Shown here: in pieces, positions 32,801 through 64,000 of the stretch
Numbering within the stretch: the stretch's first letter is position 1
How the letters are laid out: each line of letters starts with the position of its first letter
Source: Perna viridis
Lineage: Eukaryota
Length of the DNA: 64,000 bases
Direction: 5' to 3'
Assembly: GCA_037379345.1 (NCBI GenBank)
Contig: CM074519.1
Span: 35,428,103 to 35,492,102 of the forward strand
Position numbers and translations under genes: made by a program
Notes under the pieces: generated by a model
What the model was told of the DNA's origin: nothing
Databases searched by the model: none
The model's input: the letters and a program-made list of their open reading frames with translations, nothing else

Positions 32801-35800
32801 GAAAAATTATAAAAAATGTAAAGCAGTGATTAGGTACAAATGTTTTGATGTGTTATTGCTATTTAAATTGTTTTGTTTCAACAGTTCTGATTGGTTCTTG
32901 TCCATAACTGAAATCTTTTGTAATTAAGGATATTCATTAATTATTATTGATGAATAAGAATTAATTTTGTTAGTCTCTTTGCAGTTATGAATATTCATTG
33001 TTGAAAAATAATTTTGATAGTTTGTTGTGTGAAGACTATTTTGGTTTTTTGTTTCAGCAATCAGTGGACCAAATCTCAATGACTGATAACTTAAAACATA
33101 TAGAAGAATTAACAGCCGAGAGAGACAAATACAGACAAGAGGTAAGGATCATGTTTTGTTTTAATTATACCGTGCTAAACTAGTGTGTGGTATGTTGGAA
33201 TCACCTTGTTTATCCATCTATCATTCTTATTTGTCATTTCATCTGTCCGTCCAATTTTTGTGGCAATTTTCTGGCTCAAAATAAACAGATTGATTACAAT
33301 ATGAAAATAGGAGATGTATGATTGCCAATGAGATAATCATCCACCAAATACCAAGCAACAAACTTTTAAACTGCTACTGGTCACCATACAGTCTTCATCG
33401 GTGAGCAAAACCCAGAACCATAAAACAAGCTGTAATAGGCCCTAAAATAAATGTGCAACCATACATCAAGGACAAAATCAACCTTAGCAATACAAAAAAA
33501 CATAAAACGAATAACATGTTTGGTATGTTCAAAGTTGTTTTTAATTTGTCTTATTAAGAAGTTTTGAAATGAATTTTTTTTTTACAGAGTAATTGTAATA
33601 TTAAAATTTAATAGCTGTCTTTTGTCATGTTTATATGGGGTTTCTTGCCAGAATAAAATCTTATATTGTTATTTAACCATGGTACTTGAATATTTCCTTT
33701 TTTGAGAGGGGCAATCATACAGCAGAACACAGATATAGATTAATGATACTAATCTATGTTACTGTATCAAAACCAGTGTTTTGCCCGGGTTAATACTTTA
33801 TGAATTATACTGAAACCGTTGTCATTGTTTTAGGCGGACCAGTTACAAACAAGATTGAAAGATTTAGAAGAAAATAGTATAGAAAAAACTGTAAAAATAC
33901 GATTAGAAGCTAAAATTAGAGAATTAGAAAATAAATTGGAATTGGAGTCTACAACTAAACATAGATTAGAGGTAAGTAATGTTATTACATCTTTATTGTC
34001 TTGATCATGCATAGCCACCCTTTGGTTGACCTTATCATTTGTGGTCAGACTCTGGTTGACCTTAATGGGTGTAGCCACCCAATGGTTGACCAGAAAGGGC
34101 GGTGCCAGTCACTGCTTGGCATGACTGGGATGGCAGGCCATTGGTTGACCAGAAAGGGCGGCGCCAGCCACTGCTTGGCATGACTGGGATGGCAGGCCAT
34201 TGGTTGACCAGAAAGGGCGGTGCCAGCCACTGCTTGGCATGACTGGGATGGCAGGCCATTGGTTGACATGACTGGGATGGCAGGCCATTGGTTGACATGA
34301 CTGGGATGGCAGGCCATTGGTTGGCATGACTGGGATGGCAGGCCATTGGTTGACATGACTGGGATGGCAGGTCATTGGTTGACCTGATATTTGTAATCAG
34401 AATCTATTTGACATGTATAGCCGAGTCTGATTGGTCTAATTTGGTTGTGGTCAGTCAGTGGGTGACCAGAGAGTGCATGGCCAGACTGAGATTGACTGGT
34501 CGTGGGACATTCCATCAGATTAGGTCCAACAGTCTTGTATCTGGAAATGACCATTTAGACAAGGTTTATTAGTCTTTAAAAAAAGCCCTTTCTTTTAGTA
34601 TGGGTTTTATAGTGAAATACTAATCATTGATATGAAATATACAATTGTAACCAAGTCATCACATCTAGTTGGTGTATTTGCTTATTAAAAATCATTCAGA
34701 TATTTTAATTATAACACTGTAAACCTATATTTTTCATAGTCGCTGATTTGTGTGGATTCTGTCAAGTGAACATATTGGGGGATGTCAGTTGTCACGGTTT
34801 AAAAAAAATGATGGGCCTTTTATAATGTTAAATATCAATTTCATCAGTGCTTTTTTTCTGCACTTCATTGTCCACGGCAAAAATAGCAAAATTAGTAAGT
34901 TTGCAGTATTTATTTATATTTTATGAAAAAGTAAACAATTCAAGCAAAACATGCAATATAAGTTTTGATGTGCACACTTATAAGTAGCTGTCTTTGTAAG
35001 AATCATGCAAAATCTGAAAAATGTGATACACCCTCAGAAAAGTTTACAAATGTTTATTTTTGTATTTAAGTTGTTTTATGGGTCTATACTATGAAATGAG
35101 TAATTATTCATTCCAATCTGCCTGCTTTTAGGAGATAATCAACATTGAAAATCCAGTAGATTCTATTGTAATTGAGCATCATTTACAGAGTTATCTCCCT
35201 TAATTTTGAAATGTACAGTGCATTCTATATAATTTTTATCTCCTAAGAGCACAGGTTATATGAAAAACCACATGTTTTTTTCTGTTTACTATGACATTTC
35301 AAACAAAATATCAAAAATAAAAATATGTAGACTTTTTTCCCATGAATCACAAATTGCATGATTCTTAGCTGGAGTGCTACTTAATACAGTATAGTTAAGA
35401 TTCTTTTTTTTGTAGGTTAATATTAATAGATATAAGGAACAGATAGAAAAACAGAATGAAGAGAGTAATACACTCACCTTTTCTAAAACCCAAGCAGAAG
35501 ACAATCTAAAACGTGCCCAGAGACAGCTTAGAGAGCTACGTGAAGAATTCTCAGATGTTCAGAAAAGGGAGCTTGAGTGCAGTCATAAAAATACAGAACT
35601 AGTAAGTATTAGGTGTACTGGTTTATAATCTTGCTTTTGAGGGGTTAGAAGTCTTAAGTTCTTACATGTAATGTGAAAAAAATTAGTTAAGCAATATTCT
35701 TCTAGTTTTTGCTTGTTATCCCTTTGAAAAAAATTAAAGACAAATGAGTCTGCTTGAAACAAAATCATTCTTATGTATTGATCTGCTATGTAAATGGAAA

Positions 35801-41970: not shown

Positions 41971-44900
41971 TATAATCAGAAAAATTAATTTCATTACTAG
42001 TAGTTTTGTATTGAGTATAATTGTTGACTTTAATCATTGGTTTCTTTATTAATACACATTTAACTGATACAGTGGACCAGCATTTATTCCTTATCTATAC
42101 TAGAGGCACTTACTAGTGTGAAACTCTAGAAATGTCCATGCTGTTAGCAGCCATGTTGAATTATGATTTTGTTTTATTTAGTTGCCCTATAAGAAATAAT
42201 GGATTAATTTGTTGCTTGCGTTTATCTTTAGTTGACACAAGGCTATTTTTGTCTTCCGTTTCCTGTGATATCTTATTTTTGCCATATTGACATATAAATT
42301 GAATTTTTCCAACTGCATCTATAATAGACTGAACACATAATACAGATGTAAATGCATCATATACATAATAAAATGTAATTAAATCTGTCTCTAATAAAAC
42401 CCTATAAATAGAGAATTGAAATGGTATATCCTTTTGCATAAATTAGATGTGCCTAGCTCCCATGTAGATTTGACCTTTACAATAAATTTGATTGTCTCAA
42501 TATTTCTTAGACCTGATTTCCATCTGATTTAACAAAAATTTGCTTCTTCAGATTGGTATTTTACTCTTGCAGTTTCTTATTTAATTGTTTACATGTATTT
42601 ACTGAGGAATTTGCATTTTTTTCTCTTTTGGTTAGGTCTGATTTCTTCTAATGTTTGTTGATTTGATTTGTCAATAAAGTCCAAGTATTCATTTGAATAT
42701 AAAACTTTTTTATTGCAACACTTTTAACTAGTAATTATAACAGTATGTACAAACTTCAGTTCTTAAGGATTTTGTAGAGACACATTTAAAGGCATTCAAT
42801 GATGATGCAGTAAAAGGTCTTTAATGTTAAACAAATATCATTTGTATATTTTTTTAATTTGTAGGGATGCATGCATTTCATTTTTTATTGTTGCCTTTTT
42901 ACAAATTGAAATTGTTCAAATTTTATCAATTAGCTGAATGGGAAGATATTTGATGTACATATCCCTAAATTAGCAGACAACCAAGTTTTTAGTTTAAAGT
43001 TCAAAATTCTACAATTAAATACAACATTAATTAATGTATGATATTCATTTGCACAATTTTTATTGCTCAAGCAGATACCAAATTTAATCATGATGATTTG
43101 CATCAATGCATTTTCATGTCTGATGATGTTGCATATTCATTAAGTTTTTTTCATCAATGTTCATACATGGAATAGCCATAATCTACATATTCATAGAACT
43201 CATTTGCATAAATATTCATAACTGCCAGTATTTATTTGTTGCTTATTTATCTAGAACAATATGTTTTTATTATGAAGAAATAAAATATAATGACCTACTG
43301 AATTTATTTTGTTTGTTATGTAAAAGGCTCACTCTGTAATAATTGTTATCTCCTGTGAATTTAATTATTTACAATATTTTGTTACAATATTTTGTTACAA
43401 TATTTGCAAAGAAGATTGCAATAATCTTAGCCAACAAATGCAATATTCGTTGCAATAACCAAAATAATTCACATTTGTATAAAAAGGTTGTAAATATAAA
43501 ACAATGCTTCTGAGCAAATAGCCAATGCAAAAAAAAACAATAACTAGATGCTAATTAGTATTTTGTTCCTTTGAAAATTATTAGTTGGTCATATTATGTT
43601 ATAGCACTGTTACAATTTATATTGATGTGTTGTCATCATCATGAGACACTTGGTTTTCATGCTGTAAATTGAATATTAGTGTTTTTATCTTACAACATAG
43701 ATGGAAACCCCACAAAAGGAAGATTTGTATCAAACTAATGGGATAAAAACATAGATGGAAACCCCACAAAAGGAAGATTTGTATCAAACTAATGGGATAA
43801 AGCCACAACAACCATGAATTTAAAACAACTGGCTTGAATACATAATAACCATATAAGTGAAAACATTTTTGGTCATATAATTTTAATGCACTGTCATGAT
43901 CACCATCCACAGTTATTTGTTTTTGTTGTCCTGAGACACTGTTTTTAGTGCAATATCTTGAATATAAATGTTTTCACACAACTCTCAACTTTCACACGGA
44001 AATCACATTAAAGGAAGATTGGTCTTGATAAAATGAAGGAAGTTTGGTATTAATTAAATGAAGGAAGATGGGTATTGATTAAGGAATATGACACTAAAGG
44101 ATTTGGAACAAATTATGAATTTAAAACAACTTAAATACATAACTTAAGTATATATGTGTGGATTTGACGGGTAGGTTTCATATTACAAAAAACATTCTGT
44201 TAATTGTTAAGAGTTATAAACCTTACCACGTCAGAATAAGAATACAAGAAGGTTTCCTAGTCGTTCATTGAAGACCCATGGGTGGCCATGGGCTGACTTT
44301 TTTATTTGATTTTCAATCTGTGGCAATCCAGGGATGCTAGCTAGCCAAATACTTCAGTTATCTAGACTCACCTCGTAATTTAATCACAATGAAGCTTGGC
44401 GACCAACAGATAAGTTTTGCCTGTCATCGATTCCAAATGTTATCGTGTTGATATTAAGGACATTCAAGTTTACTAAAATAACTTCAACGTCAACAATGAA
44501 ACTCGCTGATGTGTTACGAATGTTTTCTATCTGTCATCATCTGAAAAGGGTAAAACAATCACAGTGCTGTTAGCACTTGAGGTTATTGATCTCCGTCAAA
44601 ATTGTAGCATGAACATAATTTCAAAGTTAATATGAAGTAAAATAAAACTGTAATTGTAATTTGCTTTTCCCATAATATTCAAATTTTTGAAATAGTATAT
44701 ACTGAATATAAATGTTTACTACTGATTTTCAGAGATATAAACTGTAGATCAATAGTTAAACAGTATACAACTTCACACACATTTACAATTTTGTTTCATT
44801 TTATCTTTTTCACAAGTTTTTGAACCTATCCAAAAATTTACAATAATATTAAAAAATATGATGCATTCTTACACTGTATTTTTCACAAATTAAAATTTCA

Positions 44901-45837
44901 GCTACAAAATACAATTTCCTAGATGTACATTAAATTTTCCAAGAAACAGACACTAATCAATTTAAGAATCTTCCGACAACTTTACTTTGTGTTTTTAAAT
45001 TAAATGTAATTTGAAAGATATCTTAATTTTGCACTTCAAAATATGCCTGTTCTTTTATTTGCATTTGAGATGGGTTTTTTTTTCACAGCACTTTGATCAG
45101 TGGTGGGGCTAGGATCAAAATTTAGCACATTTTCACTTTCTATAGTAAAAATGTTTTGAAAGTTGCAAGAGATGACTTGGTTTACGGAACTAAAGGAGTA
45201 ATGTGTGAAACTTCGTGGTATCTAACGGTTTATTCACAAGGGGCAAACTTAAAAAATAGTATTTTTTAAATGAATTTATTTCTTTCATGTTTCTTTACAC
45301 ATTCTGCAAAACATAAAATTTTCTTAGTGCAAATTTATAACTAGATATCTTTCAAGGCCAAAAAGAAGTTTCTCTAATCTGCATTTGATTTATGACCAGA
45401 TCTTAATTTCATAATGGTAACTTGCTGTCCTCGTCGTAAACGACTGTTGTTGTCCGGCGTCCGTAGACAATTTGGTTTCCAGACAATAACTAGAGTATAA
45501 GAGTAAGGATCTTCATGAAATTATACCACAAGGTAGGTTTGGATTTTTTAGGATTTGTGACTTAAACCGAGTAAGAATTAAGGACCGACCAACAAGGGCC
45601 ATAAACAAGCATTTCATGATATCTGAACCTATAAACTTGACTATAATGAATCGATTTCTTTGAAATTGTACTATCAGATGACATGCCACATAATGAAGGC
45701 GATTTATATAAAAGATAACAACCTTTCTCAGTCTTTTATGGATTCTAGCCACAATTCAGTCATACCTTGATTATAAAATAGTCAGAAATGTCTGCTGTCA
45801 GTGGATAAAAGATACTAGTGACTAAGTTCGCATGTTT

Positions 45838-46004
45838 AAAGAGTAATCAAGGGGACCAAGGTTATAGCGGTAATAAAAAAAAATGTAATCCAGGGACTAA
45901 GACCAGACATGGAAAACAGACATACACAACAAAGAACATAAAGTAACTAAAATCATACATTCAAAGTAACAAAAGTAAATGAGCAACTCGGACTCCACTA
46001 AAAA
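45838..46004 (-). mobile_element. 5'-truncated Penelope-like 3' end
   Basis: matches 57585-57745 and the reverse complement of 26028-26193. Confidence 0.75.
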
Positions 46005-46434
46005 TTTTAATATTCTTTTTATAATTTTTTAAAATTTTTAAAATTTTAAAAAATTCAAAATTTAAAAATAAAGTTTTTCGAGAGGAGAGAATAATAATCC
46101 TTTATCTAAGAAAATGTTCCATTCCAATGTCACACATTGCTTCCTTGGAACGGATGATGTAGCAGACAATTGCAAGCTTTGAAATTGGCGTGAGGAGATT
46201 CTGTAGAGAATGAATTATCATTCTAAATATATAACTCCAGTTATTCTTGATGGGATTATAGCACATTGTCCGCCCGTCCGTCGTTCAGAATTCTCACAAT
46301 CTTCGTTTAACTACAGTGAATCGTTTATTTTTATTGATGTTGGCTCCATATCTGTTTCCATTCATTTCTGGCTTAACTGTTTCGATAAATGAAAATTTAT
46401 TCTTTAAATTTCAGCGATTTCTTCTTTTGTATTT

Positions 46435-46571
46435 NNNNNNNNNNNNNNNNNNNNNNNNNNNNNNNNNNNNNNNNNNNNNNNNNNNNNNNNNNNNNNNNNN
46501 NNNNNNNNNNNNNNNNNNNNNNNNNNNNNNNNNNNNNNNNNNNNNNNNNNNNNNNNNNNNNNNNNNNNNNN
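46435..46571. other. assembly gap (137 N)
   Basis: N run; corresponds to the T-rich simple repeat at about 50748-50857 in copy 2. Confidence 1.
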
Positions 46572-47118
46572 TTCCATACTCTTCATACTTTACTTGGGTC
46601 GATGCAAATTGTGAGGCACATTTTCAGGTTAGTTTAATTGAATTAAATTGTTCATATCAATCAGCAGTAGTGGACCACGGACATTCGTTTCAATCATAGA
46701 TATAATGTACGAGCTCATAGGGAACGGTTGTATCATGCGTTAATGACACAAGTCTTTATTTTATGGTTCACTTTAAATGTAAAACACACTATGAATTACA
46801 CAGAAACGCATTAAGGGACTCTTACACTATAACAAATTGAGCGAACGAACTGCTACCGAATTGAGAAAAGAATAGAAAAGTGACCTGTTAATCACTTGTC
46901 AGATGAAAAGTTGACGTTTTGAACAAGCTAAAACGATATAATGTGTAATTATAACGAGTAAACCCATTCAGAACGAATTTTTTAACAAACGAAGCACCAA
47001 CACGAAAGCGACTACGGAACGTTCTGTGTACCTATCACTAACCATCTTACCGCATATACTATTAAATATTGGTAATTAACGAATGAAACGCTCATAGGTA
47101 ATACATAACGAATCTAAT

Positions 47119-50100
47119 TTCAATGATGATGCAATAAAAGGTCTTTAATGTTAAACAAATATCATTTGTATATTTTTTTAATTTGTAGGGATGCATGCAT
47201 TTCATTTTTTATTGTTGCCTTTTTACAAATTGATATTGTTCAAATTTTATCAATTAGCTGAATGGGAAGATATTTGATGTACATATCCCTAAATTAGCAG
47301 ACAACCAAGTTTTTAGTTTAAAGTTCAAAATTCTACAATTAAATACAACATTAATTAATGTATGATATTCATTTGCACAATTTTTATTGCTCAAGCAGAT
47401 ACCAAATTTAATCATGATGATTTGCATCAATGCATTTTCATGTCTGATGATGTTACATATTCATTAAGTTTTTTTCATCAATGTTCATACATGGAATAGC
47501 CATAATCTACATATTCATAGAACTCATTTGCATAAATATTCATAATTGCCAGTATTTATTTGTTGCTTATTTATCTAGAACAATATGTTTTTATTATGAA
47601 GAAATAAAATATAATGACCTACTGAATTTATTTTGTTTGTTATGTAAAAGGCTCACTCTGTAATAATTGTTATCTCCTGTGAATTTAATTATTTACAATA
47701 TTTTGTTACAATATTTGCAAAGAAGATTGCAATAATCTTAGCCAACAAATGCAATATTCGTTGCAATAACCAAAATAATTCACATTTGTATAAAAAGGTT
47801 GTAAATATAAAACAATGCTTCTGAGCAAATAGCCAATGCAAAAAAAAACAATAACTAGATGCTAATTAGTATTTTGTTCCTTTGAAAATTATTAGTTGGT
47901 CATATTATGTTATAGCACTGTTACAATTTATATTGATGTGTTGTCATCATCATGAGACACTTGGTTTTCATGCTGTAAATTGAATATTAGTGTTTTTATC
48001 TTACAACATAGATGGAAACCCCACAAAAGGAAGATTTGTATCAAACTAATGGGATAAAAACATAGATGGAAACCCCACAAAAGGAAGATTTGTATCAAAC
48101 TAATGGGATAAAGCCACAACAACCATGAATTTAAAACAACTGGCTTGAATACATAATAACCATATAAGTGAAAACATTTTTGGTCATATAATTTTAATGC
48201 ACTGTCATGATCACCATCCACAGTTATTTGTTTTTGTTGTCCTGAGACACTGTTTTTAGTGCAATATCTTGAATATAAATGTTTTCACACAACTCTCAAC
48301 TTTCACACGGAATCACATTAAAGGAAGATTGGTCTTGATAAAATGAAGGAAGTTTGGTATTAATTAAATGAAGGAAGATGGGTATTGATTAAGGAATATG
48401 ACACTAAAGGATTTGGAACAAATTATGAATTTAAAACAACTTAAATACATAACTTAAGTATATATGTGTGGATTTTACGGGTAGGTTTCATATTACAAAA
48501 AACATTCTGTTAATTGTTAAGAGTTATAAACCTTACCACGTCAGAATAAGAATACAAGAAGGTTTCCTAGTCGTTCATTGAAGACCCATGGGTGGCCATG
48601 GGCTGACATTTTTTTATTTGATTTTCAATCTGTGGCAATCCAGGGATGCTAGCTAGCCAAATACTTCAGTTATCTAGACTCACCTCGTAATTTAATCACA
48701 ATGAAGCTTGGCGACCAACAGATAAGTTTTGCCTGTCATCGATTCCAAATGTTATCGTGTTGATATTAAGGACATTCAAGTTTACTAAAATAACTTCAAC
48801 GTCAACAATGAAACTCGCTGTAGTGTTACGAATGTTTTCTATCTGTCATCATCTGAAAAGGGTAAAACAATCACAGTGCTTTTAGCACTTGAGGTTATTG
48901 ATCTCCGTCAAAATTGTAGCATGAACATAATTTCAAAGTTAATATGAAGTAAAATAAAACTGTAATTGTAATTTGCTTTTCCCATAATATTCAAATTTTT
49001 GAAATAGTATATACTGAATATAAATGTTTACTACTGATTTTCAGAGATATAAACTGTAGATCAATAGTTAAACAGTATACAACTTCACACACATTTACAA
49101 TTTTGTTTCATTTTATCTTTTTCACAAGTTTTTGAACCTATCCAAAAATTTACAATAATATTAAAAAATATGATGCATTCTTACACTGTATTTTTCACAA
49201 ATTAAAATTTCAGCTACAAAATACAATTTCCTAGATGTACATTAAATTTTCCAAGAAACAGACACTAATCAATTTAAGAATCTTCCGACAACTTTACTTT
49301 GTGTTTTTTAAATTAAATGTAATTTGGAAGATATCTTAATTTTGCACTTCAAAATATGCCTGTTCTTTTATTTGCATTTGAGATGGTTTTTTTCACAGCA
49401 CTTTGATCAGTGGTGGGGCTAGGATCAAAATTTAGCACATTTTCACTTTCTATAGTAAAAATGTTTTGAAAGTTGCAAGAGATGACTTGGTTTACGGAAC
49501 TAAAGGAGTAATGTGTGAAACTTCGTGGTATCTAACGGTTTATTCACAAGGGGCAAACTTAAAAAATAGTATTTTTTAAATGAATTTATTTCTTTCATGT
49601 TTCTTTACACATTCTGCAAAACATAAAATTTTCTTAGTGCAAATTTATAACTAGATATCTTTCAAGGCCAAAAAGAAGTTTCTCTAATCTGCATTTGATT
49701 TATGACCAGATCTTAATTTCATAATGGTACCTTGCTGTCCTCGTCGTAAACGACTGTTGTTGTCCGGCGTCCGTAGACAATTTGGTTTCCAGACAATAAC
49801 TAGAGTATAAGAGTAAGGATCTTCATGAAATTATACTACAAGGTAGGTTTGGATTTTTTAGGATTTGTGACTTAAACCGAGTAAGAATTAAGGACCGACC
49901 AACAAGGGCCATAAACAAGCATTTCATGATATCTGAACCTATAAACTTGACTATAATGAATCGATTTCTTTGAAATTGTACTATCAGATGACGTGCCACA
50001 TAATGAAGGCGATTTATATAAAAGATAACAACCTTTCTCAGTCTTTTATGGATTCTAGCCACAATTCAGTCATACCTTGATTATAAAATAGTCAGAAATG

Positions 50101-51406
50101 TCTGCTGTCAGTGGATAAAAGATACTAGTGACTAAGTTCGCATGTTTAAAGAGTAATCAAGGGGACCAAGGTTATAGCGGTAATAAAAAAAAATGTAATC
50201 CAGGGACTAAGACCAGACATGGAAAACAGACATACACAACAAAGAACATAAAGTAACTAAAATCATACATACAAAGTAACAAAAGTAAATGAGCAACTCG
50301 GACTCCACTAAAAATTTTAATATTTTTTTATAATTTTTTTTAAATTTTTAAAATTTTAAAAAATTCAAAATTTTAAAATAAAGCTTTTCGAGAGGAGAGA
50401 ATAATAATCCTTTATCTAAGAAAATGTTCCATTCCAATGTCACACATTGCTTCCTTGGAACGGATGATGTAGCAGACAATTGCAAGCTTTGAAATTGGCG
50501 TGAGGAGATTCTGTAGAGAATGAATTATCATTCTAAATATATAACTCCAGTTATTCTTGATGGGATTATAGCACATTGTTGTCCGCCCGTCCGTCGTTCA
50601 GAATTCTCACAATCTTCGTTTAACTACAGTGAATCGTTTATTTTTATTGATGTTGGCTCCTTATCTGTTTCCATTCATTTCTGGCTTAACTGTTTCGATA
50701 AATGAAAATTTATTCTTTAAATTTCAGCGATTTCTTCTTTTGTATTTTTTGTTTTGATTTGTTTTGTTTTGTTTTGTTTGTTTGTTTGTTTGTTTGTTGT
50801 TGTTGTTGTTTTGTTTTTGTTTTTGTTTTTTTTTGGGGGGGTTATAAACCAAGTCAGTTCCATTTTCTTCATACTTTACTTGGGTCGATGCAAATTGTGA
50901 GGCACATTTTCAGGTTAGTTTAAATGAATTAAATTGTTCATATCAATCAGCAGTAGTGGACCACGGACATTCGTTTCAATCATAGATATAATGTACGAGC
51001 TCATAGGGAACGGTTGTATCATGCGTTAATGACACAAGTCTTTATTTTATGGTTCACTTTAAATGTAAAACACACTATGAATTACACAGAAACGCATTAA
51101 GGGACTCTTACACTATAACAAATTGAGCGAACGAACTGCTACCGAATTGAGAAAAGAATAGAAAAGTGACCTGTTAATCACTTGTCAGATGAAAAATTGA
51201 CCTTTTGAACAAGCTAAAACGATATAATATGTAATTATAACGAGTAAACCCATTCAGAACGATTTTTTTTAACAAACGAAGCACCAACACGAAAGCGACT
51301 ACGGAACGTTCTGTGTACCTATCACTAACCATCTTACCGCATATACTATTAAATATTGGTAATTAACGAATGGAACGCTCATAGGTAATACATAACGAAT
51401 CTAATT
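47119..51406 (+). repeat. 4.3-kb tandem segmental duplication, copy 2
   Basis: as above; scattered SNPs and small indels. Confidence 0.97.
50148..50314 (-). mobile_element. 5'-truncated Penelope-like 3' end (duplicate of 45838-46004)
   Basis: part of the segmental duplication. Confidence 0.75.
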
Positions 51407-52027: not shown

Positions 52028-54914
52028 TACGTAATTTAGTTATGCAAATTCTATTAGTTTTTGGAAGTCTTATTTGATATTTTTCAAGTGAAAATTCTAA
52101 TTTAAATGAACCAAAAATTTGTTCTTTTGAAGAATTATTTATGTCACTAAACCACTTTTGTATAAATTGATCTTGTAAAATTTTAGTGACATGATTTAAG
52201 TCAAACTGACCATCTTGATTTAAAAACACATATCTCATGCCGGTTCCATTAAATATACATTCAATATGATTCATCCATATAAAGCTCTCATTTCCATTAT
52301 ATTTCAGTTTATACAATAAAGAATACAATAAACTACTTAACTTATCTTTGTTATTGATAAGTCTATACCAAAACGATAAAATTCTTTTTAACTCTCACTT
52401 CTAAAGGAAAACGCCCCAATTTTCCAAAAACCATAAAATTAGGACACAAGCTTCGAACATTTAAAATTCTTTTTACAAAAACTAAGGTGTATTCTTTATA
52501 TAATTTGTAAATTGTCCTATCCCCAAATTTCAGAACCATAGAGTAAAATAGATTAAATCATAGCATCAAAAAGTATTAGTTGAAGATCAATAGGAATGTT
52601 CTGGGTTCTAATATTTTTATATATGCTAAACAAAGCTCTTTGAGCTTGGTTAACAAGCTTTTGTTTGGCGTTTGAAAAATTGCCATTGTACTTGAAAGAT
52701 AATCCTAGGTAGGGAAAGGTATCTGGAATTTCTATATTTTCGTCTTGTAATCTGAATTGAACGTTAATATAGCATTTCCGTTTAAAAAAATAATCCTAAT
52801 TTTTGTCTTCTCTACATTAACAATTGATTTCCAATAATTACAGTATTGTTGAAAAGTATTTAGTGCGTTCTGCATTCCATCAGAAGTTTCGGCTAATAGT
52901 ACTGTATCATTGGCATACAGAATTACAAACATTAAGAGTAAAATATCAAAATTACGGTCAGCTAGATCTTGCACCAAATACAACAGAGAGCATCCGCGAT
53001 CTTCAAGAAATTCCTCAAGATCGTTTCGAAAAATGGAGAAAAGGAAGGGAGATAAGTTTTCACCCTGTCGGACAACTGTCATACAGGGAAAAATCTGATT
53101 GTTCACCATCATATTGAACACAAGATTTAATATTATCATACATGTTGTATGTAACAGTGAATATCTTTCCTTTTATTCCATTCCATTAACTTCTTCCACA
53201 AGCCTGTTCTCCACACAAAGTCAATAAAGGCGCAAAATAATTTCTTTCTGTTTGATTGGTAAATCGATACGAGAGAATTCAAAATAAACAGGTTGTTTAT
53301 TGTTGAATGTTCCTTTCTAAATGAAGCTTGGTTTTCCGTTAATAAATCAACCTCATTAGCAAAGCACGTTAGACTAGTGTTTAGTATCAAGGTGAAGAGT
53401 TTTCCTACATAACTTATCAACTAGGTTGCTCTGAAGTTATCTGGGTTCATATTATCTCCCTTGTTTTTATACAGGGGTCGAATTATAACAACGGCCCACG
53501 TGTCTGGTGCAACATCCGTATTCAAAATAAGGTTGAATAGATTAACCAATAACTGAATCAATTTCGGAGGCGAGTTTTTTAGATACTCATTCAAAACACT
53601 ATCCAGACCTGGGTATTTCTCATTTTTCAATGATTCGATAGAACGACAAATCTCATCCTCAGCAATGTCATTATTTAATATAGATTCAATCTGCTGATTA
53701 TCACAAATAGTGTTTAAATCTACGACATCATCATCACCATCCTAATCATCATCATTAAGCTTCTTACAATAATCAAAAATGTATCTATATCCATAGGTGG
53801 GTTAGGTTTGCGAGTGCCATAAAATTTATTCAGTATTCTCCAAAAAACTTTAGAATCATACTTCGAATGAGATCTCAACTCCATAGCGGTTTTTTCTTGA
53901 TATCTTCGTAAACCTTTGTTAAGTTCCCGCTTATACTCTCGCGATTTTTTATTCAGAAGCTTTCTGTATAATCGGTTTTAACATGTTTATATTTACTTTT
54001 AGCCTCATGAAATGCACCCCGCTTAATACTGCATTCTTTAGTGAACCAAGGTTTACAATTATATTTTAAATTAGTCTTTGAATTGTGTGTACCAAATACA
54101 GATGTAGCATTTTCATTATAGAATACACATTAATCATTTACAATTGAATTTACTTGATCAAGGGTCGGTCACATGACTGTGTTCTACATTCATTAGTTTG
54201 TCTTCAATATTTTGTAAAACAAGTTCTGAATCATATCTCAAAACTTTCAGAAAATCACCTGCTTTACGCTGGTTCAATTTAACCCTTTCTTTACATGTAT
54301 TTTGTTTTATTATTTACCACTTTATCAGAGCCAGCGAGTAAAGAAATACAAAAAATTAACATGTTATACACATCTGAAAACATAGGATTAAAATCAATTA
54401 TTTCAAAGTCAGTAATTACATCGCACATATAAGGCAAGAGTAACAAATAATCAACTAGACTGACATTTTTACTGGTAGTTCGTCCTTGATTACTACAATA
54501 CACGGCCACTGTCAGCAAAAACGTTACACCTTTTACGTAGTTCTAACAGTTTTGAACCGTATCTATTAACACGACCAGCATCTTGACTGATTCTATCTAG
54601 TGGGATTTGTTTGTGCCTTAAACAGTCAAAACCAGAAAAAGATATGTTTTCGTCTGGAATATCTAAAACATCTAAAAGTTGCTCGTCAGGCACTACAAAA
54701 TCTGGTAAAATATCCGTTCGAGCGTTCACATCACCAACAACTAATGCATATCTTGTATTTTCTGAAAAAAAAAAACCAAACAAACAAACAAATCATATTG
54801 CTTTATCAATAGGTGAAAGTCAGGGTTCAGTAACTTTGATTCGATTCCACAAACGTTTAAGTCAGTAATGTTCAGTTTACTAATAAAACTGGTTCTATCG
54901 TCTGATGCGTTGTC
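52017..54914 (-). pseudogene. disrupted LINE ORF2 (endonuclease-reverse transcriptase)
   Basis: fragments in several frames of the ORF track; catalytic YADD changed to YAND near 52907-52918. Confidence 0.9.
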
Positions 54915-56954
54915 CTAGTCGTGGGGGTCACCGCCTTGATCTCTATTGTGAATTGGCGGTACGGGTGGAGGGTCAATACGAGATCTAATGTTGTACGGAC
55001 GTCCATCAACGGGAATTTGGTTATACACCATCGTAGCGCGTTTCCGTTGTCCCTGTAATTCTTTCAGTTTTGGGTAGAGTTTCCTACGACGTTCGACTAT
55101 TTCGTCTGGATATTATTGGTTAATTGTGTACTGAGGTTTTCCACCAGTTTGGATGCGGCCTTTCTTACCAGCTCATCGTCTTTGTCATTGACAAATCTTG
55201 CTATAATGTCTCTAGGTTTTCCGTCTCTTCTGGCACGAAGACGGTGAACATTCTGAAATTCGATGTCCTCAACGTCCGATATGTCTAGTTCCGTATGGAA
55301 GAAATGTTTTGAGACTGCCTCGTTTTTTTTTCAGTTTCAAAGTTGATTTCTGATATTCCACCACATAATCAAATTGTATTTCATCGAATGGCTTTGTAAT
55401 TTTATCAAGTTTTCTTTCAGTTCAAAATTTTCAGTTTCTAAGCCTTCATTTCAAGACAATTCATTCTTTCCTGTATCTCATTATGCTGTCACTCTTCAAC
55501 CCCCGAGTATATCTTTGTGCTGATTTTGGACAGTTTTGATTTCTTGAATCTCTGTTTTCATATCTGAAATTGCCTTTTCAAATTTTACAAAGTTTTCATT
55601 GATCTTATCGATAATATCAAGTTTCGAGAGTTCATCTTTCATTAAGGAGTCTATTTGATTAAACCGGTGGTTAAAAGCCTCCATAGTGGAGAAATTATTT
55701 GGAGAGATTTCGAATCGACTTGGTTTTGGGATATCGGTACTGGAATAGGCTGCTGTATAATGTTGTTTGGTGGCAGATTTTGTTGAGACTGAAGTGGCTG
55801 TATCCCAACAGACGCCTGTGGAGTACAGTTAGAACTCTGTTGTGGGTGTTTTAATTAATATTATGGCTTCATTCTCGAACAAGAGCACCATATAAGACAC
55901 TTACATACATGTGCATCAGTATTTAAAAATTCAGTATCAAGACTTTAACTTTTTCACGGCTACACTAAGTAAGATCATATAGTGTGTCAACTAGGCTTGC
56001 CAATGCATTCCATTGAATAGTTGATTATTGCTCTCTTTGTTTCTCGAGTTCCGCTATATATACAATACCACGCGTCGGTAGATGCTACTAACTCATCATA
56101 TTTGAATTGTTAACATTTTCACTTTTATATACTTAAAAATTTGGAATGAACAGTAAATTAAGGGAAACCGACCTTAATAATTAAGGAATCATTTTGAATA
56201 AAAAAGGTACCAAATTTTAACTGGAAGTAGATGAGATTCGTTATAAGAAGTAATCCTGGTACTTGATCTGTAGTTTTTTTCTCGCTCAGTCTCACCAAAG
56301 CGTTAAGTAAGTTTCCCCGGTAACACATGCTTTTTCGTTTTGTTAAATATCAAACTGATTATTTCTAATATAATATAATATCATGAGAGATATGCAGACA
56401 ACCAATTAACCAAAAATTACTTAAATTCCGTGGTCGATTATTCAAATATAAAAATAGCAAACACACAAAAATGTGAAGATTTGTAAAAGGCTAACCGGAA
56501 CGGGAAAGTCCCCTTCATTCAATAAAGTGTTTTGATATCGAAATAAAGATACTGAAATAAACCAGTATATTTCTAAAATCATTTGTTTCTAATAAAAGTA
56601 GAAATAAATGTTAAACGTATTGAAAACGCCCTGTAATAGGGCTTAATGTACATCTACAAGCACCTATTAACACAACGAACAGAAATTTTTAAAATAATTT
56701 TGTCGTTCATTTCCAGTTCGTGTGATAATTTGTTATATTATAAGAGCACATTAGTGTTAATTTGCTGTTCTACCGGTTACAGTTCTCATCATAGTATACA
56801 TGTACATACCAAATAATGTGAACAAATTATGAAACAGATGCAGAGAGAAGAAAATAAGCACATGTTCTAATTATAACAACAAGGATAGCCGCACGACTCA
56901 TCTTGGAAATAATACATCACCAAACTGGAAAAAAAAATCTATAACCCTGTAACA

Positions 56955-57584: not shown

Positions 57585-58080
57585 AAAGAGTAATCAAGGA
57601 AACCAAGGTTATAGCGGTAATCAACAGAATACAATCCAGGGACAAAGACCAGACATGGAAAACAGATATACACAATAAAGAACATAAAGTTACTAAAATT
57701 AAACATAAACAATAACAAAAGCGAATGAGCAACTCGGACTCCACTCCACTAAAAACTGGAAGCATGGACCAGGTGCACCGGTAGAGTAATCGTCCTCTGC
57801 TTTTCTAGAAACACCCACCGAGTTGCTCATAAAAAGTCAAGTCCGGGGTAAACAAACGAAGAAAGGAAAATTATAACCCGTTGAATAAATCAGTTTTCAT
57901 GGTGCACATGGATACACCATAACGATCCACGAGTTCATGATGACGACCATAAAACTTCTGCAGTGATGCCTTCAATCTTGTAGCAACATAACCCTGTTCT
58001 AGAAGCCTATTTGTTAGAGTTCTAGCGCGATACCAAAAGTCGGTGTAGTTTCGGCAAGCTCTGGCATAACATATGAGTTG
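57585..58080 (-). mobile_element. 5'-truncated Penelope-like retroelement: RT C-terminal 69 aa plus structured 3' UTR
   Basis: 58080->57871 translates QLICYARACRNYTDFWYRARTLTNRLLEQGYVATRLKASLQKFYGRHHELVDRYGVSMCTMKTDLFNGL-stop, matching the SQLIRYARAC...QGY...KFYGRH pattern I recall for invertebrate Penelope-like RTs. Confidence 0.78.
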
Positions 58081-59291: not shown

Positions 59292-59466
59292 CTATTCATA
59301 AGTTCAAACTTGAGTTAAATGTGAAAAAGGATTGTACAACTGACCATTGATTTGCGATTGGAACTGTGTAGACAAAAAGGCATTTTTTTTTGTTTCCTTC
59401 GTAAAAACAAAAATGACACTATCTAAGAATTAAGTAATCTAAGTATCATCTTAAGAATAATTTTAT

Positions 59467-60147
59467 TTGTATATACATATGTTTTATAATCTGATCACAA
59501 TTAAAGCTCTAAAAACTGACATAGACATTGATATGGCCCGTGAATCGTCACGCATGGACACCCTCGCTAAATCTTTAGAAACACTCACTACACGTATTGA
59601 TACTATACAGGGTATTGTTGACAATGTACCGGTCGATGAACATGGATTAGGCAATAACGGTCAAGCGAATACACAAAATGCTCACGGCAATCCACGTAGG
59701 CCAGATCCACTGAATGACAATGAAATCACCGTTATAGTTAAAAATGTTCCATATTCTGACGATGAAGATATAACCGAAAAAGCAAATAACATTATAAATA
59801 GTATCGGTGAAGATATATCAAATAACGTGAAAATTGTAGCAGCAGCTAGACTACGAAAGCGATTTCGTGACAAACCGGCATTGATAAAAGTCAGTTTCGA
59901 AAACTCAGATCAAAAAGTACTCGTTCTCCGAAATAAATATAAACCCAAAGAAGTTGATGAATATAAACGGGTGTTTATCCAGGGCGCGAAATCACGCATG
60001 GAGAGACTTCTTGAAACAAATGCGAGAACAATATTGAAAGAATTACCACACGGAAATTCGTACAGAATAACGGGAAGCGGACGCATTCTTAAGAAAAATG
60101 AAAACGTACCGATGGAGGCAAACGATATTCAAAACGATTCGGAATAG
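59467..60147 (+). CDS. LINE ORF1 (coiled coil + RRM-like/CTD nucleic-acid-binding protein); N-terminus uncertain
   Basis: heptad segment MDTLAKSLETLTTRIDTIQ; VIVKNVPY..EDI, ARL...KPALIKVSF, VFIQ typical of LINE ORF1. Confidence 0.8.
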   Translation: MYIHMFYNLITIKALKTDIDIDMARESSRMDTLAKSLETLTTRIDTIQGIVDNVPVDEHGLGNNGQANTQNAHGNPRRPDPLNDNEITVIVKNVPYSDDEDITEKANNIINSIGEDISNNVKIVAAARLRKRFRDKPALIKVSFENSDQKVLVLRNKYKPKEVDEYKRVFIQGAKSRMERLLETNARTILKELPHGNSYRITGSGRILKKNENVPMEANDIQNDSE

Positions 60148-63100
60148 GTACACGGCCGGTGCAACTGGACTATTAGCATAGCTCAGCTAAATGTTTGTGG
60201 TTGGACTGAAAATAACTCTTTATTACGAAAGCAGATTGTTAAAAATGTAGATGCCGATATATTCAGTATATGCGAAACGCACTTGAAAAATGATGATAAA
60301 CTAGAGATAGAAAATTATAAATGGATAGGATCGAATAGAAAAGAAATTCACAGAAACGCACCGAAAGGGTCTGGGGGTGTCGGACTTTTCGTCAAACATT
60401 GGATTAATCAGGAATATACTTCGGAAATAATAGACGCTACATACGATGGTATTCTATGTGTAAAATTTACTTCCAAAAGTACCGACCTCAGTTTCACCGT
60501 GATATCTTGTTATCTACCGCCGGAAAATTCAGTTTGGGGACGAGATTCACAAAGTTTCTTTGCGCATATCCTGTCAATCATGTACTCTTATAACGACTGT
60601 GACGCTCATATTATATGCGGAGACTTGAATGCGCGCATTGGATCCTTAAGCGACGTTTCAGAGTTTGATTCTGTACCGGAAAGGTCGTGCATTGATAAAG
60701 CAATTAATCAACATGGACATGCCTTTATAGACTTTTTGAACGAATCTAAAACGTGCGTTCTAAATGGAAGATATGATAATTCAAAAAACAATTATACGTG
60801 CATATCGGGAAAAGGAAAGTCAGTTGTCGATTATATATGCGTTCCACATGAAGCTTTACAGACATTCATTTCGTTCGAGGTTCGCACCATACGATCGATA
60901 GTTGAAAAATACGACTTATTTGGATACCTAAATGACCGCTCGAAAGTCCCGGATCATTCTGTACTAGAAACTAAAATGAACACACAAATTAATGTCGATA
61001 GTATAAGTAAAAAATCAGGAAGTGCTTTCAAAAAACGATATAAACTGAAGGTGATTCCGAACGATTTTTTCGCCTCTGATATATCGAAACAAGCAATACA
61101 AACACTTATAACACGTATTGAACGGACCCGTGAAACACAAAGCAACATAGATGGAATATATACGGATTTGTGCGATACTATCTTAAAGGAGATGGATGAT
61201 ACAATTCCTTGCTTTGCACCAAGTAACAACACGAAAAAACGTTTCCGAAATCATAAACCATACTGGAATGAAGAACTATCGACTCTTTGGAAAGACATGC
61301 ACTTTAAAGAGCGATCATTCTTAAAATGTACGGGAAATACAAATTCGAAACGATTAAAACGGCTCCAATTCCAAAGTGCACAAAAACTATTTGATCGTAG
61401 ATTGAGATTTTATGAAAGACGGCACCGAAATGCGTTCTGTGAGGAACTTGAAACAATGACAACAAAAAACCCTAACGAATTCTGGGCTAAAATACGTAAT
61501 ATGGGACCACGAAAACAATCCGAAATACCCATGGAAGTTTATGACGATGAACGAAATATTCTTAATGACGAAAATGAAGTTTGCGAAAAATGGAAATCCG
61601 AATTTGAAAAAATGTACAACAACACTAATGCAAATCAGGATTTTGATAATGAATTTTATAGACAATCGCTACAGCATAAAAATCTACTAGAAAACAACAT
61701 GTTAGATCCGTTATATCAATGTAACGAAGAATTAAATTCCAATATTACTATTGAAGAGGTCTCTGTAGTGATTAAAGCCACGAAAAATGGAAAAGCTACT
61801 GGTTTGGATAAAATACCATACGAAGTTCTTAAATCGCCGAACATCTTACCAATTCTACTATCTCTTTTTCAATGGATATTTGATACAAGTTTGATACCAT
61901 CTTTATGGAGAAAGGCAATATTGTTTCCCATCCTGAAAGACATGTCCTCCGATAAGCGAGAACCATTGAATTATAGAGGAGTGTGTCTACAGTCATGTAT
62001 ATCTAAACTGTTTAGCTCTTTTATGAACAATCGTCTAACTTCCTATTTAGAGGATAATGATTTACTTGCAGACGAGCAAAATGGATTCCGCCGACAAAGA
62101 TCATGTGAGGACCATGTTTTTACACTGAACAGTATAATTCGAAATAACCAAAATATAATAGCAACTTTCGTAGACCTGAAGAAAGCGTTCGATTTCGTAG
62201 ACCGTGATATGCTCCTTTATAAATTACTCTTAAAGAATATCGATGGTAAACTTTATAACTCTGTGAAAAGTATATATTCATTGACTTCAGCAAGCATACG
62301 AATAAACAATACTATGACAGACTGGTTCACGTGCTATTCAGGAGTTAAGCAAGGTGATAATTTGTCCCCGACTCTATTCTCGATATTCATAAATGACTTG
62401 GTTCAGGAAATAAATAACCTAGAGTTGGGTATCGATATCCATTCAAAAAAACTTTCACTGTTATTGTATGCCGACGACATAGTTATGTTTGCGACTAACG
62501 AGAATGACATGCAGCTTATGCTGAATACTCTTCACAACTGGTGTAAAAAGTGGCGAGTTCTCATTAACACGGACAAATCTAAAGTCGTTCATTTTCGATC
62601 GGGACGAAGACCAAGAACATCCTTCCAGTTTAAAATTGGTGATAATATGCTACAAATAACAGAACAATATAAGTATCTAGGCGTGATATTTCATGAAAAG
62701 AAGACATTCGAGTCAAATGCCGATAATCTTGCTAAGGCTGGAGGTCGTGCCCTCGGGGCCCTAATCTCAAAAGTGCACGGGCTAAAGGACTGTGGAGTTA
62801 ATACTTTTCAAAAACTGTTCTACTCATGTGTGGCTCCGATTATTGACTATAATGCTGCTATATGGGGATTTAAAGGTTTCAACTGTATTGACAATGTTCA
62901 AAATAAAGCAATCAGATACTTCTTAGGAGTACACAAGTTCGCACCTAAATCGGCAATAATCGGAGATATGGGTTGGTTACCATCACGACATAGACATTTT
63001 CAACATATGGTTAGATACTGGAATAGACTTATGAAAATGCCTGACGACAGATTATGTAAACAAGTGTTTCTGTGGGACTATAACAGATGTAACAATAACT

Positions 63101-63809
63101 GGTCCTCAGATTTAAAGTCTGTGATGAATGATATTGGACTCAATCATCAATTTAGTAATAAACTCGTATGTGATCTTAACACCGTAAATGACTCTCTTGT
63201 TGAAAAGTACGCACATGAGTGGTTTGATATGAATGAAAACTCACCAAAGTTGAGGACTTACAAAACGTTTAAATCGTTCTTCCAAATTGAACCATACGTC
63301 AAAATGAACTTATCGAAATCTGAGAGATCTATGATGGCACAGTTCAGATGTGGAATTCTCCCTTTGAGGATCGAAACAGGCCGCTATGTAGGTGAACCCA
63401 AACATCAAAGAATATGTCGTTTGTGTGACACTGACAATGTAATTGAAGATGAAATACACTTTTTGACCGAATGTTGTTTTTACAATGATATCAGAACTGA
63501 GCTTGTCAATAACATAAATGGACTTGATACTTTCAAAACCTTACCAAAATGTGAACAGTTAATTCAACTTGTGAAATATTTTCCCAGACAAACTTCAAAT
63601 ATTATTTTAAAAGCTTATTGTAAGCGTAGACAGTTCATTTACTCAAAATGATTTTTTTTTCTGGTGTTTTACTTTGCTTGAAATTGTATATAGATAAAGC
63701 TAATTTAAGTGACTTATAGGTCCAGTGGGCCGGGTGTATCTTATTTCATGTTAAAATTATTGTTTGTTAGTTTGATTTTGTACACATGTCACTATAATAA
63801 ATAATTACT
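59481..63809 (+). mobile_element. young CR1/L2-group LINE, probably 5'-truncated within ORF1
   Basis: ORF1 plus uninterrupted ORF2, short 3' UTR ending AATAAATAATTACT; possible TSD TACATAT 59474-59480 / 63810-63816. Confidence 0.93.
60148..63651 (+). CDS. LINE ORF2: APE endonuclease + reverse transcriptase + C-terminal CCHC knuckle; 1167 open codons from the ORF1 stop
   Basis: APE: LNVCG, ICETHL, GGVG, YLPP, GDLNAR, VVDY, PDH. RT: NYRGV, EQNGFR, DLKKAFD, GVKQGDNLSP, YADD (62467-62478), YKYLG. C-terminal CRLC..EDEIHFLTEC. Confidence 0.96.
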   Translation, partial: VHGRCNWTISIAQLNVCGWTENNSLLRKQIVKNVDADIFSICETHLKNDDKLEIENYKWIGSNRKEIHRNAPKGSGGVGLFVKHWINQEYTSEIIDATYDGILCVKFTSKSTDLSFTVISCYLPPENSVWGRDSQSFFAHILSIMYSYNDCDAHIICGDLNARIGSLSDVSEFDSVPERSCIDKAINQHGHAFIDFLNESKTCVLNGRYDNSKNNYTCISGKGKSVVDYICVPHEALQTFISFEVRTIRSIVEKYDLFGYLNDRSKVPDHSVLETKMNTQINVDSISKKSGSAFKKRYKLKVIPNDFFASDISKQAIQTLITRIERTRETQSNIDGIYTDLCDTILKEMDDTIPCFAPSNNTKKRFRNHKPYWNEELSTLWKDMHFKERSFLKCTGNTNSKRLKRLQFQSAQKLFDRRLRFYERRHRNAFCEELETMTTKNPNEFWAKIRNMGPRKQSEIPMEVYDDERNILNDENEVCEKWKSEFEKMYNNTNANQDFDNEFYRQSLQHKNLLENNMLDPLYQCNEELNSNITIEEVSVVIKATKNGKATGLDKIPYEVLKSPNILPILLSLFQWIFDTSLIPSLWRKAILFPILKDMSSDKREPLNYRGVCLQSCISKLFSSFMNNRLTSYLEDNDLLADEQNGFRRQRSCEDHVFTLNSIIRNNQNIIATFVDLKKAFDFVDRDMLLYKLLLKNIDGKLYNSVKSIYSLTSASIRINNTMTDWFTCYSGVKQGDNLSPTLFSIFINDLVQEINNLELGIDIHSKKLSLLLYADDIVMFATNENDMQLMLNTLHNWCKKWRVLINTDKSKVVHFRSGRRPRTSFQFKIGDNMLQITEQYKYLGVIFHEKKTFESNADNLAKAGGRALGALISKVHGLKDCGVNTFQKLFYSCVAPIIDYNAAIWGFKGFNCIDNVQNKAIRYFLGVHKFAPKSAIIGDMGWLPSRHRHFQHMVRYWNRLMKMPDDRLCKQVFLWDYNRCNNNWSSDLKSVMNDIGLNHQFSNKLVCDLNTVNDSLVEKYAHEWFDMNENSPKLRTYKTFKSFFQIEPYVKMNLSKSERSMMAQFRCGILPLRIETGRYVGEPKHQRICRLCDTDNVIEDEIHFLTECCFYNDIRTELVNNINGLDTFKTLPKCEQLIQLVKYFPRQTSNIILKAYCKRRQFIYSK

Positions 63810-64000
63810 TACATATATTGGTGTAACTTCGAATGTATTTCATTGCTAATCATGACACCACCACTCTAATTATAATATATAAGGTATCAGCATTATTATT
63901 TTTACAGGACAGTTCATCAATTATCAAACACAGATATGGGTATATGGAAATGATAACAATAACTTTAAAAAGATGAAATAAATATATCAAATTACTAAAA

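Follow-up and report, generated by a model that had tools for sequence, protein, structure and literature searches.

A conserved in-frame UAG between ORF1 and ORF2 suggests Gag-Pol-like readthrough in RTE-X-like LINEs

We analyzed a 64,000-nucleotide stretch of Perna viridis DNA (contig CM074519.1; hereafter the window) that carries a LINE with ORF1 and ORF2 in one frame, separated by a single UAG. Programmed readthrough of the UAG is the probable route of ORF2 expression in this family and would yield a Gag-Pol-like ORF1p-ORF2p fusion. Judged from sequence, the junction design is conserved across RTE-X-like LINEs and resembles gammaretroviral gag-pol in its anatomy.

Results

The ORF1-ORF2 junction of the window element

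ORF1 ends on the forward strand at TAG 60145-60147, in the context GAA TAG GTA CAC GGC CGG, and ORF2 follows in the same frame, as an earlier note on this DNA had claimed. Past the TAG the frame stays open over 60148-63651 (+), i.e., for 1167 codons up to TGA at 63649-63651. The same note had placed the endonuclease motifs LNVCG and ETH ahead of the TTG at 60283 (ORF2 codon 46) and had described a late ATG. Both hold: the motifs are seen there, and the earliest in-frame ATG of ORF2 lies at 60580-60582 (+), codon 145, deep within the endonuclease. In a profile alignment to T9-N14 of the L1 endonuclease (L1 EN), the first endonuclease strand corresponds to 60172-60192 (+) and ends with Asn15, the equivalent of L1 EN Asn14. 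As this residue precedes all ATGs, any AUG start of ORF2 would remove catalytic residues; ORF2 thus has no usable AUG. Reinitiation of the SART1/L1 type uses an AUG in the ORF2 frame that overlaps the end of ORF1 or comes soon after it; such an AUG is absent. The stop and its following codon, UAG GUA at 60145-60150 (+), form a candidate readthrough site that matches the type III hexanucleotide UAGGUA.

ORF2 comprises an APE endonuclease (Pfam, residues 13-237), a reverse transcriptase (RT; residues 605-848, 61960-62691 (+), RVT_1 with E 2.7e-37) and a C-terminal Cys/His motif with invariant C1090, C1093, H1104 and C1109. No protease domain was found in ORF2 by Pfam. With an APE endonuclease followed by RT, the window element is an APE-type non-LTR retrotransposon. 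In profile alignments L1 EN was the best sequence match of its endonuclease, and L1 EN was also the best fold match of the relative L019 (Z 21.6, rmsd 2.7, 209 aligned residues). The 3' UTR runs from 63652 to a presumed end at 63812 (+), with AATAAA at 63796-63801, a short simple-repeat tail and no clear target-site duplication.

The RT segment and the length of the element are like those of bivalve RTE-X LINEs (Martelossi et al. 2023, PMC10294476). In the part of the published alignment consulted, the RT segment closely resembles 17 clusters by eye, e.g., M.edulis_245_LINE; the six of these 17 that were looked up are all annotated RTE-X in the tree, an assignment by eye and not by reference tree. 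A full-length copy would measure about 4.8 kb, against an RTE-X mean of 4937 bp (PMC10294476). We therefore regard the element as most likely an RTE-X LINE. Its nearest named homologues are Mytilus proteins, in keeping with a mussel-like host. Motif searches in portions of the curated bivalve LINE libraries (PMC10294476) gave no match.

The window ORF1 (59500-60147 (+)) equals residues 84-298 of P0248, a 298-aa database ORF1, with one residue changed. Residues 1-83 of P0248 have no match anywhere in the window, and we therefore consider the copy 5'-truncated at about 59500. The earlier description of an intact LINE was wrong in this respect, as the initial 83 of 298 ORF1 codons are missing. 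No target-site duplication was found at the 5' truncation junction, and the copy does not show the 5' UTR with target-site duplication that marks a full-length element. 5' truncation is usual among LINE copies. The structural model of P0248 has an 89-residue helix (coiled coil) and an RRM-like domain with CTD, and its best nine Foldseek matches are all human L1 ORF1p (E 3.5e-5 to 4e-4). The model thus predicts an L1-type, i.e., type II, RNA-binding ORF1 with coiled coil, RRM and CTD.

Further copies of the RTE-X-like element were not found within the window. The window's second LINE, a decayed element from a different family, lies on the reverse strand at 52029-55828, with ORF1 and ORF2 remnants (25-37% identity to ORF2). 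Its junction at 54743-55112 (-) has the same in-frame design: an ORF1 tail, TAG-GAC with TAG at 54917-54915, and the endonuclease in frame. Exon-like stretches at 12529-12981 and about 26240-26395 (+) appear to resemble myosin-18, which suggests that the LINEs lie within or near such a host gene. The window also holds a tandem 4.3-kb duplication (42795-47119 and 47119-51406) whose copies are about 99% identical, the first containing an N run; it may be an artefact of assembly. Further features are tandem repeat arrays at 1111-2540, 23198-23674 and 34048-34403, and dispersed short repeats at about 26000, 45900, 50200 and 57600-57790.

The stop in the family and in close homologues

The database ORF1 P0248 terminates at the same stop as the window ORF1. 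P0002 is the ORF2, with four residue differences from the window, and was called separately from the TTG at codon 46. Each of the two records lists a longest contig of 4833 nt, from which we infer that they lie on one contig. The earlier note had reasoned that a sense codon in other copies would point to a private nonsense mutation; we found the in-frame TAG to be fixed throughout the family and well outside it.

Among 101 ORF2 homologues, the called start falls past the catalytic Asn in 71, inside the first strand in 14 and still further upstream in 16. The 11 full-length homologues with at least 50% identity are without exception called from scattered codons between 11 and 47. This pattern is suggestive only, since it reflects gene-caller choices. 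The stop of another ORF1 protein, P0119, could be decoded against its frameshifted twin P0151: it is TAG, with 14/14 sense codons consistent, and the endonuclease follows in frame with the same spacing as in the window. In four colinear fused database proteins the residue at the stop position is Glu, Lys, Tyr or His, the first three each being one base from TAG. Full-length fusions are rare (1/9 matches, namely L002, described below). In a sub-lineage (P0015, P0021, P0022, P0023, P0035, P0113, P0116, P0153) the endonuclease is preceded by an acidic low-complexity extension of 60-260 residues that is unrelated to ORF1.

Distant relatives

A scan of genome bins gave 24 loci on what appear to be animal host contigs. 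The junction is absent from eight of them, and 12 combine an ORF1 profile match with an endonuclease (33-39% identity). In 11 of these 12 two-ORF elements the order is ORF1-TAG-ORF2, in frame and with a single stop. The twelfth, L002, has one fused ORF of 1487 codons with TTC (Phe) at the stop site. L015 (26% identity) also has TAG-G in frame, after an upstream ORF that lacks an ORF1 profile match. L001 shows an in-frame TAA; this locus starts 30 nt before the endonuclease at a contig end and holds no ORF1. One genome-bin record supplies 11 of the 12 informative loci and another record in that series the remaining one, hence the 12 are probably families of a single host.

The informative loci are 45-78% identical within groups, with silent sites near saturation in group C, where synonymous codon identity among six elements is 38-46%. 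The TAG elements spread over at least four deep lineages in a quick tree without bootstrap, and L002 is nested among them in the same tree, beside L005 and with L008 outside. The fused frame of L002 (326-4789), sister to the TAG-bearing L005, is followed at its 3' end by tandem repeats of about 40 nt.

In L013 and L021, which carry a PHD-type ORF1, the ORFs overlap out of frame. The L013 overlap (5821-6022) measures about 200 nt, ORF2 lies in the -1 frame, and no Met occurs before codon 110. A correctly phased heptamer U_UUU_UUA at 5842 is the sole one in its ORF1 (chance expectation 0.13), and no structure was found downstream of it. L013 may tentatively be read as a candidate for -1 frameshifting. 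The decayed L021 also has TTTTTTA nearby.

A motif resembling GTCACGCT was noticed by eye in the leaders (5' regions) of L003, L009, L010, L011 and L012 and might be an internal promoter element. The animal LINE contigs of L001-L012, L019, L020 and other scan loci sit in records labelled as bacterial genome bins, an apparent host contamination of that collection.

Stop codon, context and position against the fold

Read as DNA, all 14 in-frame junctions have TAG and the same frame. A single in-frame UAG between the ORFs, as at type III sites, is thus kept in the 11/12 relatives, in L015 and in the second window LINE. ORF1 ends with TAG in 13/13 cases, ORF2 in 0/12 (Fisher p 2e-7 with relatedness ignored). 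When six lineages and the highest G-ending rate are assumed, the chance estimate is about 0.006 for TAG throughout and about 0.001 for the shared frame; the G-ending share of Lys, Glu and Gln codons is 25-43%. G directly follows the stop in 11/14 junctions, and a purine stands two bases before it in 13/13. Five of the 14 carry an exact type III hexanucleotide (UAGGGV, UAGGUA or UAGGAU), among them the window with UAGGUA and L012 with UAGGGA.

The stop is also close to the fold. It lies seven codons ahead of the catalytic Asn in six elements. In the L019 model the fold begins at the residue next to the stop (pLDDT 94 for residues 21-30), and this first folded residue aligns with L1 EN residue 8. 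Since the stop abuts the first endonuclease strand, these six elements leave no room for a downstream start. Only one of 12 in-frame elements has a Met upstream of the catalytic Asn (L008, with a usable ATG). The first codons after the stop vary among in-frame elements. The fourth tends to C/G-G-G, with G in 11/13 at each of its last two positions; we regard this NGG as a lead only, because it is confounded with strand-1 residues and because the second window LINE has TCA. A Met near the ORF1 end (60112 in the window) was rejected as a signal, as it occurs in 11/31 ORF1 tails, about the chance level.

Synonymous conservation after the stop was 0.69 versus 0.48 in group A, 0.71 versus 0.37 in group B and 0.43 versus 0.42 in group C. 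In the two raised groups, 24/822 and 17/1039 sliding windows reached equal silent-site conservation.

RNA structure near the stop

The earlier note had pointed to a 5-bp hairpin at 60156-60168 (+). It can indeed be drawn and starts 8 nt past the stop. It does not exceed chance, however: when the 53-nt fragment was shuffled, 147/200 versions folded equally well. In longer folds it is replaced by another stem, and 27/200 shuffles are as good. The accompanying analogy to a gammaretrovirus-like hairpin or pseudoknot 3' of the stop was unsupported by folding, RNAalifold and long-range pairing tests, which covered stems and long-range pairing to about 330 nt with pseudoknot-free models. Dinucleotide shuffles of 60, 90 and 120 nt past the stop gave no z below -1.4 in 14 sequences, the combined p against synonymous shuffles was 0.10, 0.85 and 0.72, and the RNAalifold consensus past the stop contained 0 pairs. 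In a shared-register test for long-range stems, 33/173, 96/261 and 51/107 controls were as good. A cluster of long-range partners 190-230 nt downstream (4/13 sequences at ≤8/200 controls) vanished against shuffled arms; L020 alone remained (p 0.005; combined p 0.34). Rfam searches over 59300-64000 returned one chance match.

Discussion

Readthrough and alternative explanations

The earlier note had left readthrough and non-AUG reinitiation side by side. We favor readthrough, with reinitiation as its main rival, because neither the frame nor the TAG varies, because the stop directly adjoins the first endonuclease strand and because one relative is naturally fused. In the proposed mechanism, most ribosomes would stop at the UAG and release RNA-binding ORF1p, while a few would insert an amino acid there and continue to an ORF1p-endonuclease-RT fusion. 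The readthrough rate would then set a low enzyme-to-chaperone ratio, as it does for gammaretroviral Gag-Pol. We infer the readthrough itself, its low rate, and that the fusion joins ORF1p trimers on the element's own RNA. Against readthrough stands that type III sites generally depend on a structure some 8 nt 3' of the stop (PMC13517186, as far as the source was consulted), whereas the folding and pairing tests found none here. Also against it are the unraised synonymous conservation in group C, the probable single host of the informative loci, the out-of-frame overlaps of L013 and L021, the TAA of L001, the usable ATG of L008 and the scarcity of full-length fusions.

If instead ribosomes terminated at the UAG and reinitiated without an AUG just downstream, a free ORF2p would result, as proposed for human L1. 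Translation of L1 ORF2 can be AUG-independent. In the portions consulted, PMC5972666 and PMC2881922 give reinitiation as the model generally adopted for both SART1 and L1. Reinitiation would also agree with the ATT and ATA at window ORF2 codons 9 and 11 and with the stem and long-range tests, in which no readthrough stimulator was found. But reinitiation needs neither the same frame nor a particular stop codon, and both are invariant in 14/14 junctions. Moreover, in group C it would have to begin on the codon right after the stop, yet this codon varies (GTA, GTC, GTT, ATA, CTA). We therefore consider reinitiation unlikely, though a serious competitor. Far less probable is that the TAG is a nonsense mutation private to one copy of a single-ORF element, or that the arrangement is a passive leftover while an internal transcript supplies ORF2. 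The fully fused L002 and the short fused database proteins would suit such an origin. Its private-mutation form is refuted by the same stop in other family records and in 11/12 relatives, and an internal transcript would still be without an AUG ahead of the catalytic residues.

Two explanations invoke changes to the RNA. Use of TAG/G as a 3' splice acceptor, joining an upstream AUG to the endonuclease, would account for the AG requirement and for the G preference at +4, and gene models of the relatives P0007, P0014, P0017 and P0103 do splice across the junction. These splices, however, delete the first catalytic strand and disagree among themselves. A pyrimidine tract is lacking, since pyrimidines make up 23-55% of positions -25 to -4 in 13/13, the in-frame ORF1 would be left unexplained, and a retrotransposed spliced RNA should lose the junction. 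With no pyrimidine tract, we give splicing scarcely any credence. A-to-I editing of UAG to UIG (Trp) in some transcripts would account for the stop being UAG, a preferred ADAR triplet. The stop, however, lies in no consistent duplex, no fused protein carries Trp at that site (L002 has Phe), and edited RNA copied in cis would be expected to fix TGG. Without duplex and Trp fusions, editing is the least probable of these explanations.

Comparison with known systems

With UAG readthrough as the preferred reading, the closest likeness is the gag-pol junction of the gammaretrovirus MoMLV (type III of Beier and Grimm), where structural and RT ORFs also share one frame with a single UAG between them. 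The UAGGGA of L012 is the identical hexanucleotide, and the UAGGUA of the window also counts as type III in the consulted parts of PMC13517186 and PMC3159437. Unlike MoMLV, the window element is non-LTR and has no Pfam protease, no conserved pseudoknot or stem was found by the tests above, and its readthrough is a prediction. We regard the junction as no more than a candidate type III site, with a putative stimulator and a putative fusion.

Human LINE-1 shares the L1-like ORF1p fold, the APE-RT ORF2 and the reliance of ORF2 on a non-canonical step. It differs in its 63-nt spacer and ORF2 AUG (PMC5972666, in part), whereas the window element has neither spacer nor AUG. Bombyx SART1 also lacks an intergenic region between ORF1 and ORF2, but in its UAAUG stop-start the AUG overlaps the stop and a structure lies downstream, whereas the window ORF2 is in frame and without AUG (PMC5972666, PMC3894237, consulted parts). 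Candida Tca2 (gag-UGA-pol) and Zorro3 are retrotransposons with ORFs in phase and stop codons between them. Tca2, an LTR element, is a cautionary precedent, since a reporter test of its junction gave no readthrough according to the part of PMC7175516 consulted. Zorro3 has several stops between its ORFs, versus the single TAG here.

We found no report of ORF1-ORF2 readthrough in a LINE in the open literature; one may exist in Repbase Reports, in Dfam notes or in subscription papers. The consulted text of a 2026 readthrough review (PMC13517186) does not mention retrotransposons. Where consulted, PMC3894237 describes the translation mode of non-LTR ORF2 as an open question, and the reviews on ORF2 translation give reinitiation (SART1, L1), IRES and 2A routes only (PMC5972666, PMC3894237, PMC2881922). 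Within the searchable literature, the junction design appears to have been previously unflagged.

Implications for the clade

Beyond the window family, we think it somewhat more probable than its opposite that an ancient and large LINE clade, RTE-X, makes a Gag-Pol-like fusion by amber readthrough, with a signal other than a simple 3' stem or known motif. Sister elements would have swapped it for constitutive fusion (L002) or possibly -1 frameshifting (L013), i.e., the retroviral set of solutions. The junction design also accounts for database ORF2 proteins of this clade that were given a wrong start within the endonuclease or a splice over the junction. A clade-wide readthrough site would supply a new natural readthrough context and would add a retrovirus-like mechanism to LINE ORF2 expression. 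Readthrough would also imply a physical link of ORF2 to the ORF1p trimer, which would offer a simple way to achieve cis preference.
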